DNA of 55,609 bases, counting the filler, from Circinaria calcarea (Eukaryota), in assembly GCA_051942165.1 (NCBI GenBank). It is 2 parts of 2 records of this genome, joined end to end, with 100 filler letters (N's around TTAATTAATTAA, not from the genome) between each part and the next. Parts side by side here need not be neighbours in the genome. Positions count along the whole stretch, not along the records: positions 27,867 to 55,609 come from JAVECS010000063.1; 1 more part is not named here. One strand, written 5' to 3'. The translations under genes and the position numbers were made by a program. Positions within the stretch are counted from its first letter, which is position 1. Every line of letters starts with the position of its first letter. Below, piece by piece: positions 39,000 through 45,176 of the stretch. The notes below the pieces were generated by a model. It made no database searches. It had not been told where the DNA came from and was given only the letters and a program-made list of their open reading frames with translations.

Positions 39000-40579
39000 T
39001 TAGCTGCTCACGGAGCTGATGCCGACTGGTAGACCGGGTTGTTGCGGCCCGGTAACGTGGCGCTTTTTCTCTTTCTTGGCCCAGCGGAGGCCGCATGCCT
39101 GGATGGACACCGGAGAAATTAGTACCCGCCAACTCAGCAAAGGCGGCTCGGTAACTCGGGAGATACGTACATTGCATAACGTCTTGGGCCCATTGGGTCC
39201 TTTCCTCCACTCTGGTGAGTCCAGAGTCCCGCAGTCGGTACATACGTACTCATCCGCTACCTTGAGTTTCTTCTTCTTGTCGGTTCCTCTATTCTCTTTG
39301 TCGACTGGGATCGCGATCCCCGCATCACCTCTGATTAGAGCGGGGCTCGCGTCTCCGGTACTTATGCCTTGACTACGCTCCCCATCACGATAGCGTAATC
39401 CGGTCAGCATTTCGATAGTCTCGATATGCGTAGCCCCTTCGTAGCGAGCCATTTTGTCGTTGATGCTGTCGGGCTTTAAGGAAGCGTTTGCTTCGTCAAG
39501 GTTTTGTTGCGTGAGAGCTGTATTGGAGACGGAGGGTTTGGCGGGCGGAGGCATGCCGTTGTAGTCGTTGGAGCCTTGAACGGATGTCATCGATGCTGAG
39601 CCGGGAGGTTCGGACTCGGTGCGTTGAGTTTCTGAAGGTGTGACGCTTCCGTGGCCTTCTTGCTTCTTCTGCCAGTGCCGCTGTTGTGCTTCGGCGTCTT
39701 CCTGCTCCTCTTTACGCAAATCGTTGATGCGCTTTGTTAGGCGCTCATTTTCAATCTTATGCTCTAAGAAGGAGTCGAGGAGGTTGGCGTTCTTCGTGGG
39801 ATAGGGGCGCGCCATCATGAAGAAGCCTCTGCAGAAGCCGGCGGCGTTATTGGGCCCGAATGCTGCGGCCTCGGAGGTAAGGTGCGGATGGCCATGGGAC
39901 TCAAAGATTGTGTAGGTATCGTCGGATTTGCGGAACCGGTAGAAGAAGCGAAGAGGGTTGCCTGAGGCGATGGATTCGTTGAATTCGCGAATGAAAATGC
40001 CGCTGTCGTCTGAGTGGATGAAGTTGACGATAAATTTTCCGACCAGCTCGTCTTGCTCGTAACCTGTGAGCGCCTTGCTTGAAGGGGATACGTAGAGTAT
40101 TCGTCCATCTGGGGTGAGAATGTGAAGAAAGTCCTTGAGCTCTTCGAGAACTCTTTGAGACCAGTTGCGGCGTTTTGTAAACTCTGTCAGCGTACTGCCC
40201 CCATTTATATTTGCTTGCGCACCAAAGCCAGTAGGTAGAGGACCAGCGCCGGCGCCAGTCATCGTCTTGTTGGCGGTTGCCGCATCATTGGATTCATTTG
40301 CCAGCCGCTGTTGCCCGTTGACCTGCGGTTCAACAGGAGTGTAGGTCTGCGGATCCGGATCGTTGAGATTGAGATCGAGGTTCATCGGGAGCATGTCCAC
40401 ATCCAGACCGTTCATCATATCGCCGCCGTGTTCGAGCATATCTGTCATCGAGGCGTCCCCTCCGCCCATAACCACCATCTGCGTCTATCAGCTTGAGCGC
40501 AGCCATCAGATCGCATGTTGCTTACGTCCGTGGCAAGATGGGAGGACAGCCCATCGCGCCCATTGTCGTATAATGACAT
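39000..40579 (-). CDS. wc-2: White collar-2 / LreB (PAS + GATA zinc finger)
   Basis: LTEFTKRRNW, PAS domain, LDSFLEHKIENERL coiled coil and CTDCGTLDSPEWRKGPNGPKTLCN|ACGLRW. Introns ~40479-40525 and 39099-39170. A further upstream in-frame exon is possible. Confidence 0.95.
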
Positions 40580-40820
40580 GTCCAACCGCGCCGTAATTGG
40601 ACCATTGGAATATGCCTGGATGTAGCAGCGTAATCAGGGTAGATAAGGTTTCCACGTTACAGTTGAACAACTCCTCAACTTGCACATGTTCTCGCTTCCT
40701 TTTCGTGAGTGAATGCCCCGCGTTTACATCGCGAATACCCTAGCTCTCTATTATATCTCTCATCGTACGTGAGTCTCACTCTCTGCTAAAAGTTAGAGGT
40801 CGTCGAACTCGTCAGTAAAC

Positions 40821-43800
40821 ATGTAAGTACTTCAACGCTCTGGTTTACGACACGGTCATGCTGATATGATCTTGTAGGTGTAAGGCCTCTGACCTTCCAA
40901 GCAAAGTACTGCTCACCGGAAGTCCTGACTTACGATCTCATCTGTAGCGAAAATCGACAAGCTCTCTATCTTGGGGTATATACACTATGCCCGGTAACAT
41001 GAGGCCACAGCTTAACAGTTGTGTCACAGCATTCGATCATTTGACAACACCCGTGCCGAGACTATCCAGTTTCATACCCCTCTGACTCTCATTGTGGGAT
41101 ACAACGGTTCGGGAAAGACGGTAAGTTACACTCAATTATAATGTGGTACGTACTAACCGGTGTTGAAGACCATCATCGAGTGTCTCAAGTATGCTACTAC
41201 CGGAGACCAGCCGCCTAATGTTAAAGGTGGAGCATTTATCCATGATCCTAAGGTAAGCGGCAGATCGAAACCCTACAAGCAACCTATAGGCACGGACTAA
41301 GACGACTGTAGCTATGTGGCGAAAAAGAGGTTCTCGCCCAGGTCAAGCTATCATTCAAGGGCACTAGCGGAGCAAAGATGGTGGTCACAAGGAGCTTGCA
41401 GCTGACCGTAAAGAAGACCGCAAGGACTATGAAGACGCTGGAAGGACAACTGTTGATGCTCAAGGACGGGGAGCGGACGGCGATCTCGTCGCGTGTTGCA
41501 GAACTAGACCAGATCATGCCGCAGTACCTTGGCGTATCTAAAGCTATCCTGGACTCGGTCATATTCTGCCATCAAGACGAGAGTTTATGGCCCATGAGCG
41601 AGCCTTCAGCTCTTAAAAAGCGATTTGATGAGATATTTGAAGCGCTCAAATATACCAAGGCAATCGACAATATCAAGGCGCTGAGGAAGTCGCAAAACGA
41701 GCAGCTGGGGAAATTTAAAATCATGGAGCAGCATGCAAAGGAGGACAAAGATAAAGCGGACAAGGTAGTGGCGATCTGGAGATTCGGTTATGTTATCTTT
41801 GCTAAATCTGACCTAGGCTGAGAAGAAATCTCGTGAATTGTCCGGCGAGATCGAAGCTCTACGAGCAGAGACACAGGATCTTCACAACAAAGCGAAAGAT
41901 GCCAGGGACAAGGCTGAGGAAGCCTGGAACGAAGTCGCTACATTTACACAAGTAGTAGAATCGTTGAAGGCCGCCCGGAAAAACCAGGAATGGTATGAAA
42001 AGCATCTTGCTGACCTTAGTGAAGATCTTAAAGAGCGTACCGAATCCGATGAATGGCTCCAATCTGAGCTAGACCAATACGAAGAACGGATGAAAATCTA
42101 TGAGAAGCGCCAGTCGGAACAAGCGAAGCGTTACGAAGACGTCAAGGGGGAAATCGTCCAGGTTCGGAAGAATCAGAGTGATCGGCGTATTGAAGCTGGG
42201 AAGCACGAGCAAAGGAAAACTACCCACGAGCAGAAAATCAAAGACCGTGCGGCGGAAATTAAGAAGTCCGCTCGAGAGCACGGAATCAGAGGCTATGATA
42301 CGGAACTGGACGATATGCAAATAAATGAGTTCATGGATAGAATATCCAAGCTCAGCAAGGATCAAAACACCAAGGTAGAAAGACTACGCCGAGGAAACGC
42401 CGCCGAGATGCAAAAAATACAAGCAGAGTTAGACATCTTGCGAGAACGACGGTCAGCATTGCAGGAAGGCAGAAAATTAGCGAAAGAGCAGATAGAGGTT
42501 AACGATCGAAAACTTATCTCGTCTCATTCAGAGCTCAACAATATGACGATGGACGAGGGCGGAAAGGCTATAATCGAATCGACCATTGAAGATCTTAATG
42601 ATAGAATCCAAAAGGCGAAACAAGACCTGCTCAAGGGAGCTTGGGATGTCAAAATCAAGGAAGCCAACGTTCAGTTGCGGTCGCTTGAGGACGAGAGTGC
42701 GTCACTGAATCGAGAACTAATTCAAGGAACTAAGCAGGCTGGGAATCTTGCAAGATTAGAACACCTAAAGCGAGAATCTAAAGATCGCCAAACAAGGCTT
42801 GAAAAGATGACCGGCGTCCATGGAGATAGACTTCGCGGTATTGTTAGCCAAGCATGGCAACCTTCGACACTTGAGGCAGATTTCAAACGCGTTATGGACG
42901 AAAAAAATCGTCAAGTCGCAGACGCTAAAAATCAGGTAGACGAAGCTAACAGAGAACTCGAACAGATCAACTTCAAGCTGAAGACAAGTCGATTTGAGCT
43001 GAAGAGAAAGGAAAAAGAAGCAGAGGCTTCAGCAATTATCGTACGAGATAGTATCCAAGGAGAAAATCCAGAGGACTATCCAGAAGTCCTAGCTGAGCTT
43101 CAAACCAATCGGGATATCCGTAAACAAGACGTCGATGGTTTTAAAGCTTTCCGAAAGTGGTACAGTGACTGCCTTGACGTTGCCAACTCGAACAACGCTT
43201 GCCACTTATGTTCGAGACCTTTCCGAGAGGAGAAGGCCTTGAGAACTTTCGTTGCGAAGCTGGAAAAGCAAGTATCTAGGAAAGATTTGGATATCTTACA
43301 AGAGGACCTGAAGCAATTTGAAAAAGATCTTCAAAAAGCTCGGGATGCTGGATCTAGTTATGACACATGGGTGCGGCTATCGGAAAAGGAGATACCGGCA
43401 CTACGAGCAGAGGTATCCAAGTACGAAGAACAGCGCGAGAACTTTGTCCGTCAAGTCGAAGAATACGACATGAAGCTCAGAGAACGCGAAGAAGCCAGTG
43501 TAGATGCAGGGACTCTCCAAGTCGCTGTTACGAATATTACCAAGTATAATAACGAGTTTAACGACCTTCAGAGTCAGATTCGCGAGCTTACTACGAAACA
43601 GCAAGACCTTGGTCTGTCGCGCACCCTCGAAGATGTACAGCAGGAAATCGAATCATTAGGAGAGAAATCGCGAACGCTACGGAGCAGTATAGACAAACTA
43701 CAGGCTGACGAACAGAGGAACCGTGGGCAAATCAGTGCCCTAGAGTTGGAACTCGGGAAATCTAGGAATAAACTCACGACAGCAAACCACGAATTGGAAA

Positions 43801-45176
43801 AGAGAGCAAACATCGCTGCCCAAATCGAGGACCTAAAGAAATCCCACCTGGAGCAACGTGATGCAATGGGTAAGTTTGATGCACAACTTCAAAAATTATC
43901 TCTGCAGTTTGCGGAGCAGGAGATGAAACGTGATGATATCAAGCAGCGTGCCGAGAGCAAAGAGAGAGAATTGCAACAGGAAGCGACTAGCCTTGCAGAT
44001 AGTGTCCGGAGTCTTCAGCGAGCTGATCAGGACATCCGAGCATACATTGATGAGGGAGGTCCACTCAAATTAGCCAAATGCCAGCGGGAGATTCAGAATT
44101 TTGAGCAAGAAATAGTCCAACTGGAGGCTGATCTTAAGCAGATTACCATTGAGATTAACAAGATCAGAGAAGAATTGGGAAGTCATGACCAAAATAAGAG
44201 AGTGATTAGCGACAACTTGAAGTATAGGAAAACTCTGAAGGAACTGGATGCTGTGAAGGGTGAGATCGCACGCTTAAGTGCGCAGAATGCCGAGGCGGAT
44301 CAGGAAGACCACAAACTGAAGGCAGAAAAGTGGCAACGGCAATACAATCGTTTTAGCACCGAAGAGACGAGCAAGATGGGTATCATGAAGGCAAAGGACG
44401 ATCAGTTGCTACAGCTTCTGAATGACTGGGATACGGACTACAAAGACGCGGCCTTCAAGTACAAGGAGGCCCATATCAAGGTCGAGGTAAGTAATGCACC
44501 AATCTCTAGCAGCACCTGTAGTCCACTCACTACTCTAGACAACGAAAGCAGCCGTAGAGGACCTTGGTCGATATGGAGGCGCGTTGGATAAGTACGCCTC
44601 ACCCCGCTCCTACCTGGCATATACGCGTCTCAGAGCTGATATCTACGCAGGGCAATTATGAAGTACCATACACTCAAGATGGAGGAGATCAATCGTATCA
44701 TCGAAGAGCTATGGAAGAAGACCTACCAAGGCACCGACGTCGATACCATATTGATCCGGTCCGACAACGAAACCGGAAAGGGCAATCGAGCTTATAACTA
44801 CCGTGTGTGCATGGTCAAGCAGGACGCCGAAATGGACATGCGCGGCCGTTGCAGCGCCGGTCAGAAGGTCTTGGCTTGTATCATCATCCGCTTGGCGTTG
44901 GCTGAGTGCTTTGGGGTCAACTTTGGACTCATTGCGTTGGATGAGCCGACGACGAATCTGGATCTCGATAACGTCCGTTCCCTTGCTCAGTCCCTTCACG
45001 ATATCATCAAAGCCCGGCGGCAGCAGTCCAACTTCCAGCTCATTGTCATCACCCACGACGAAGGTTTCCTGAGGGCTATGAACTGCGCGGATTTTGCCGA
45101 CTACTACTGGCGGGTGTCGAGAAACGACAGGCAAAAGTCGATCATCGAGAGGCAGTCTATCGCGGAAGTAATGTAA
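40821..45176 (+). CDS. RAD50: DNA repair ATPase Rad50 (MRX/MRN)
   Basis: [15 protein letters not shown], Walker A GYNGSGKT, long coiled coil, zinc hook CHLC, signature RCSAGQ and Walker B/D-loop LDEPTTNLD. Introns 40823-40877, 40880-40947, 40976-41029, 41121-41168, 41253-41311, 41765-41816, 44487-44538, 44592-44650. Confidence 0.96.

Follow-up and report, generated by a model that had tools for sequence, protein, structure and literature searches.

The start codon of RAD50 in Circinaria calcarea is split by an intron, and its G is carried, together with the first letter of the second codon, on an exon of two nucleotides; along the DNA, the layout reads AT, a 55-nt intron, GT, a 68-nt intron and then CG AAA ATC GAC. 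We think it likely that this is an ancient constitutive microexon between two ordinary short U2 introns, which are recognized by intron definition and removed in sequence, in either order. This explanation builds on observations of the anatomy, the reading frame, the spliced mRNA of a relative, conservation among Pezizomycotina-like loci, strong donors and the loss of introns as a block. The window, by which we mean the whole stretch of 55,609 nucleotides analysed (filler included), joins two contigs (positions 1-27766 belong to C62, and RAD50 lies on C63), and adjacency over that point is not real.

A sequence-only reading had placed two complete canonical introns around the 2-nt exon and had regarded this exon as indispensable for the Rad50 start, and both claims agree with the coordinates (Table 1), the splice signals and the reading frame. 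After removal of the two 5′ introns and six further introns, the coding sequence specifies 1302 amino acids without an internal stop, beginning with a canonical 14-residue N-terminal stretch. The translation displays the architecture of Rad50, with an N-terminal ATPase half, a long coiled coil, a central cysteine motif and a C-terminal half; we take the motifs in these parts to be Walker A, CXXC and Walker B, respectively. In a database protein search, homologues of the predicted protein carried the name Rad50, the top match being a protein of the lichen fungus Circinaria calcarea with 100% identity over exon 6, and a DNA search indicated that the gene is single-copy in its own genome. When the microexon is skipped, the ATG is gone; when intron 1 is retained, the message reads ATG-TAA; and when intron 2 is retained, an open reading frame of 23 amino acids results. 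Only at codon 92, past the Walker A motif, does another in-frame ATG follow. In the upstream direction, an ATG opens a 19-amino-acid frame at 40713-40772, a candidate uORF that the RNA contig described below does not reach.

Table 1. Features at the 5′ end of RAD50 and its divergent neighbour; positions are those of the window.
Feature	Position	Strand	Signals, evidence or remarks
5′ UTR of exon 1	40758..40820	+	at least ~63 nt if colinear with the RNA contig of a relative; the stretch compared is 40797-40820
AT of the start codon, closing exon 1	40821..40822	+	A at -3
Intron 1, 55 nt, U2-type, phase 2 within ATG	40823..40877	+	GTAAGT / GCTGAT branch at 40860 / TAG
2-nt microexon GT (G of ATG and T of Ser2)	40878..40879	+	frame, RNA contig, orthologues
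Intron 2, 68 nt, U2-type, phase 1 in codon 2	40880..40947	+	GTAAGG / CCTGAC branch at 40924 / TAG
Exon 3, 28 nt, encoding KIDKLSIL-G in the first strand region of the ATPase head of Rad50	40948..40975	+	RNA contig spans exon 3 and joins exon 4
Intron 3, 54 nt	40976..41029	+	RNA joint; accompanies introns 1 and 2 in presence and absence
Remaining RAD50: exons 41030-41120 (presumed Walker A), 41169-41252, 41312-41764, 41817-44486, 44539-44591, 44651-45176	41030..45176	+	RNA joints, translation, homologues named Rad50
White collar-2-like gene, PAS and GATA-type finger	39000..40630	-	ATG near 40579; head-to-head with RAD50

A two-intron pattern that builds an ATG was found once in the window, at the RAD50 site, against 0.05 per window across 20 dinucleotide-Markov resamples, and 2-nt-exon patterns of any sequence were found three times, compared with 4.85 per resample. 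Because patterns of the latter kind arise often by chance, the pattern alone is weak, and the claim is carried by the reading frame, the RNA and the orthologues.

RNA data were available from run X1, a biocrust metatranscriptome whose contigs are approximately 95% alike to the window, whereas runs X2 and X3 had no coverage of the site. The X1 contigs displayed joints at all six introns downstream of the microexon region. The 5′-most contig carried a loose end of 69 letters before position 40950, the last 30 of which were inspected: by eye, 22 of 26 letters were identical to positions 40797-40822 of the window, followed by GT-CA into exon 3, thus reading ATG TCA AAA, and the loose end bore no resemblance to the terminal part of intron 2. 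This contig is the doubly spliced product of RAD50, in which the 5′ UTR is joined to exon 3 via ATG TCA, and it places the microexon in the mature mRNA of a close relative in one contig at a depth of approximately 6. The sequence-only reading had named the ATGTCG junction in cDNA as a check, and the contig of the relative has ATG TCA at this joint; for the same contig, this joint contradicts the opposite case, in which another upstream ATG is spliced directly to 40948. Only the fully spliced form was seen in X1, with no retained or skipped form, in a single study of contigs, which drop rare isoforms.

The same contig bears on the model held in the database, in which RAD50 begins at an ATG within intron 1 (position 40866), uses a GTAGGT donor at 40874 and is spliced to 41030, giving MIF-IRSF and omitting exon 3 (the intron 40874-41029 is deduced from the MIF start), or begins at some other upstream ATG. 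The ATG at 40866 is present, a protein annotated in this way (P0001) is 100% identical over the query, and most database N-termini outside the Sordariomycetes are likewise non-canonical. However, ATG TCA connects the upstream UTR with exon 3 in the RNA contig, the Rad50 sequence of solved structure 7zr1 aligns from residue 1 (MSKIEKLSILG), and the alternative N-termini vary from genome to genome, often with RS-, A-, P- or T- in front of KIDKL, a pattern to be expected if gene predictors read into introns 1 and 2 or mis-join them. We therefore regard such an alternative start as very improbable. Among the non-canonical starts, 10 ended in RS-KIDKL and 20 in A-KIDKL, which is what would result if a predictor translated either the microexon with the preceding AG of intron 1, or the G of the intron 2 acceptor. 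The footprint is broad: 15 of the 120 Rad50 proteins from our first search had a canonical start, and canonical N-termini were found in 32 of 36 Sordariomycete-named proteins versus 10 of 115 others (96 NCBI-named rows from the first search and 19 Leotiomycete-named rows from the second), all of these rows being related to one another. Some curated models already give MSKIDKL.

To survey orthologous loci, we used a degenerate pattern for a 14-residue peptide, which recovered 89 metagenome loci and misses peptide variants and fungi outside Pezizomycotina. Together with the C. calcarea locus, 56 of the 90 rows had the two-intron layout, 31 had a contiguous ATG TCN, two were without a clear call and one (L063) was too short. 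Scoring required AT before the first donor and left the letters of the microexon free; one two-intron row, L085, whose locus lies near its contig start, is not among the 55 correctly scored rows; it clusters with L002 and has the same layout. The first letter of the microexon was G in all 55 scored rows, with GT in 53 (Met-Ser) and GG in two (Met-Ala; L078 and L080), and the orthologues without the introns read ATG TCN; the letters thus follow the coding need, GT leading to Ser and GG to Ala. At locus L021, GC serves as the first donor and the DNA reads ATGC, so that here the microexon, and not an ATGT in the DNA, must supply the G of the start codon. At 93% identity, the rows formed 56 clusters, and the AT-GT-CN arrangement that the sequence-only reading had proposed to look for in orthologues was present in 33 of them (GT in 32, GG in one), against 20 with plain ATG TCN and three without a clear call. 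The motif [CTA]AG-G[TG]-GT lay upstream in 33/33 microexon clusters and 0/20 intronless clusters; the position of intron 1 was identical in all 33 microexon clusters, 29 of which had an A at -3 before the start. Two loci with 300 nt of flank looked different: in L090, the acceptor-GT-donor was visible and the first donor was absent, and in L089, an ATG in good context lay 149 nt upstream of the exon 3 acceptor, but two introns could not be placed clearly, which may reflect a derived layout or just a long second intron. GC-AG donors occurred at several RAD50 introns in different lineages (intron 1 of L021, intron 4 of L039, intron 5 of L087 and one intron 3 donor).

A quick tree was built from 48 clusters (eight with short coverage were left out) and 23 named proteins, with class names that we assumed from the genera. 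On this tree, the microexon rows adjoined Tuber, Sphaerosporella, Trichoglossum, Aspergillus/Penicillium/Histoplasma, Letrouitia, Cryomyces, Pseudogymnoascus and Cadophora, ranging from Pezizomycete-like to Eurotiomycete-, Lecanoromycete- and Leotiomycete-like rows; L005 was likewise labelled with the Tuber/Sphaerosporella group. The intronless rows fell in three places: 16 in a Sordariomycete clade, one next to Pyrenula and two among Dothideomycete-like rows. Five changes of state are required on this tree, three of them by branches with strong support, and the hypothesis that the intronless state arose only once was rejected (p-AU 0.0005). From this spread, the three intronless places and the rejected single origin, we therefore propose that the layout is most likely ancestral in Pezizomycotina, and the tree points to its loss on at least three occasions. 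Placing the 16 Sordariomycete-like intronless rows in one clade was not rejected (p-AU 0.67), so the nesting of the microexon locus L062 among them does not prove additional losses. L062 groups, with weak support, near Sporothrix and Grosmannia, whose database N-termini (P0191, P0212, P0238 and P0208) are non-canonical (MCV, MYV, MY...) and look like AT read into a GTA or GTG donor; the microexon may survive in Ophiostomatales and have been lost from most Sordariomycetes.

Introns 1, 2 and 3 were present or absent together in all 53 resolved clusters (33/33 with and 20/20 without the microexon), a pattern of block loss that represents approximately 3-5 events. By comparison, intron 4 was absent from 4/33 microexon clusters and kept in 6/20 intronless clusters (L006, which continues ACC ATC, probably lacks it and was counted as absent), and intron 5 was absent from 10/33 microexon clusters, with two more unknown. 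Loss of adjacent introns through recombination with cDNA is described for fungi (PMC3514964). At RAD50, mRNA-templated gene conversion would rarely end inside an exon of 2 or 28 nt, so that introns 1-3 would leave together or stay, and the layout may persist mainly because conversion tracts cannot easily end in these exons and piecemeal loss is hard.

Upstream, RAD50 is arranged head-to-head with a gene that, from its PAS and GATA-type finger motifs, we take to belong to the white collar-2 family. The two start codons are ~240 nt apart, and the ends of the corresponding RNA contigs would be ~127 nt apart if the 5′ end of RAD50 is colinear. The same head-to-head arrangement was present in the retrieved flank of 23 of the 56 clusters, or in 21 of the 35 with at least 2 kb upstream, including loci L004, L005, L006, L008 and L078. 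In N. crassa, wc-2 is presumably NCU00902. The N. crassa RAD50 gene, uvs-6 (NCU00901), is described as clock-controlled (PMC2518617).

The sequence-only reading had further suggested that the double splice acts as an on/off gate on Rad50 translation. In such a gate, the double splice would be rate-limiting, and DNA damage, or light or the clock acting through the promoter region in common with wc-2, would shift the balance between translatable and start-less transcripts. Its appeal is that unspliced, partly spliced and skipped forms all lack a Rad50 start before the Walker A motif, and long retention of the two introns at fixed places over widely separated lineages would also be expected from a regulatory role. 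Microexons that serve as regulated switches are typically marked by weak splice sites or by conserved regulatory elements in the introns, and neither was found at RAD50. The donors of introns 1 and 2 matched the U1-pairing consensus at positions +3 to +6 in 3.21 and 3.27 of 4 letters on average, versus 2.41, 2.48 and 1.90 for introns 3-5, and were the stronger ones in 30 of 33 clusters, in a comparison that counts related clusters as independent and leaves position within the gene uncontrolled. A CTRAY branch point was present in 29/33 clusters for intron 1 and likewise in 29/33 for intron 2. Conservation of the intron bodies across species was not above that of shuffles (10.3 versus 10.1, and 10.95 versus 10.7), and no unusual RNA fold was detected over the region (z 0.52). 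The ATG-stop at the donor of intron 1 occurred in 24/33 clusters and was absent in nine; the same triplets, without any start-stop meaning, were found in 22/33 intron 2 donors (p 0.79). Because the triplet follows from the GTRA donor consensus and is as common at intron 2, the start-stop is a by-product. An upstream in-frame ATG would restore a start to the skipped form in only 1/33 clusters.

Two published cases lend the gate some plausibility. In Trichoderma, inclusion of a microexon is described as deciding the N-terminal domain of Xlr2 (PMC11121469), which resembles the situation at RAD50; however, the Xlr2 microexon has 20 nt and shows condition-dependent inclusion by RNA-seq. The clock control of uvs-6 might also be taken to favour the gate, yet Sordariomycete-like loci mostly lack the microexon. 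Given the strong donors, the unremarkable intron bodies, the by-product nature of the start-stop, at least three independent losses and the fully spliced form as the only one seen (in one contig), the gate found no support and appears unlikely to us. We hold equally doubtful a broader version in which introns 1 and 2 form a conserved splicing checkpoint on Rad50 synthesis that, in the fungi retaining the layout, is tuned by damage, light or clock, or desiccation-rehydration and maybe coupled to the wc-2 promoter region. The donor, intron-body, fold and ATG-stop results fit selection for reliable inclusion and not a tunable switch.

The layout had also been called stwintron-like, that is, one intron would have to be removed before a signal of the other could form, or the AG-GT junction would serve as a ratchet point in recursive splicing. 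The junction YAG-GT does have the shape of a recursive site, and removal of intron 1 leaves two GTs 2 nt apart. A recursive ratchet point, however, consists of an acceptor followed directly by a strong donor and leaves an exon of zero length, whereas at RAD50 two letters remain in the mRNA, and the competing upstream donor made by the GT of the microexon is weak (a mean of 1.28 of 4, versus 3.27 for the intron 2 donor). Use of this upstream GT would delete the exon and the ATG, and the GG variant of L078 and L080 abolishes it. As with the stwintrons described for Pezizomycotina (PMC5639578, PMC6616335), RAD50 has two close U2 introns that would be removed in consecutive reactions under intron definition and that automatic annotation misses. 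It differs from them in that each intron has its own canonical donor, branch point and acceptor: there is no nesting, no signal of an external intron is split by an internal one, GT joined to CNAA makes no canonical donor, and the middle two letters stay in the mRNA. Neither intron interrupts the signals of the other and the sequence forces no order, so the term does not apply as published, and we give stwintron or recursive splicing hardly any probability.

In the constitutive reading that we prefer, each short U2 intron would be recognized across the intron, which accords with the intron definition described for Pezizomycotina (PMC6616335) and retains this element of the sequence-only reading as the likely mode of recognition. 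The sites, only 2 nt apart, are probably not occupied simultaneously, and the introns would thus be removed one after another, either order giving a normal intermediate; the product AT+GT+CN would encode Met-Ser. Selection would hold both donors near the consensus, since any miss removes the start codon; the competing donor from the exon's own GT is weak.

The layout combines two known oddities, tiny fungal exons and split start codons, and this combination is unreported in the literature we searched. That search, mostly of papers open without subscription and of main texts, returned no microexon report for fungal RAD50 and no 2-nt exon that completes a start codon. The nearest parallel is the single-nucleotide exon of Fusarium CYP621A, as described by Nelson and Syed in 2026 (PMC12940212). 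Similar to RAD50, it is an ultra-short constitutive fungal exon that lies between two ordinary short introns, is needed for the frame, is conserved in orthologues, was missed by annotation, is supported by RNA and has an intronless homologue as a control; unlike RAD50, where the 2-nt exon provides the start codon with its G and recurs in several classes of Pezizomycotina, it has 1 nt, lies inside a motif and is described from one genus. In Arabidopsis, APC11 also has a constitutive single-nucleotide exon that had earlier been misannotated (Guo and Liu 2015, PMC4674806), for which accurate splicing is reported, but it is a plant gene with the exon in an internal codon and longer flanking introns. 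In Coprinopsis cinerea, 57 two-nucleotide exons are reported in 50 genes (PMC12230235), indicating that the size of 2 nt is not exceptional; the accessible part of that report names no start-codon role or cross-class conservation for these exons. Introns that disrupt start codons are described as relatively rare (Nielsen and Wernersson 2006, PMC1626468). As in RAD50, their ATG exists only after splicing; they need one splice, whereas RAD50 needs two, with the G on its own 2-nt exon.

In the genome of C. calcarea itself, the pattern ATGTRAG-N35-65-YAGGNGTRAG gave nine matches, versus two in a reversed control, and inspection of the eight matches besides RAD50 revealed no convincing second gene. 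One candidate (L098) proved to lie in a reverse-strand intron of another gene, and another (L092) had no clear open reading frame. At positions 1501-1660 of L092 (G000:C78), AT and GT are each followed by an intron-like stretch with plausible branch points, which may be chance or a non-coding or UTR structure. A strict generic pattern for 2-nt exons gave seven matches versus nine in the control, with no genome-wide excess.

The RAD50 layout explains the non-canonical Rad50 N-terminus, which adjoins the ATPase site, in 105 of the 115 proteins outside Sordariomycetes, the database protein of C. calcarea among them, and the wrong starts affect cloning, tagging and structural work in Aspergillus, Penicillium and their relatives. 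With splice sites 2 nt apart under intron definition and an all-or-none translation readout, the gene offers a natural reporter in tractable fungi, and the repeated block loss of its three 5′ introns, which enclose exons of 2 and 28 nt, provides a testable case of mRNA-templated intron loss. A conserved promoter common to a DNA-repair gene and the partner of a light receptor may merit separate attention, and regulation of the double splice, if true, would add a new point of control to the repair of double-strand breaks.
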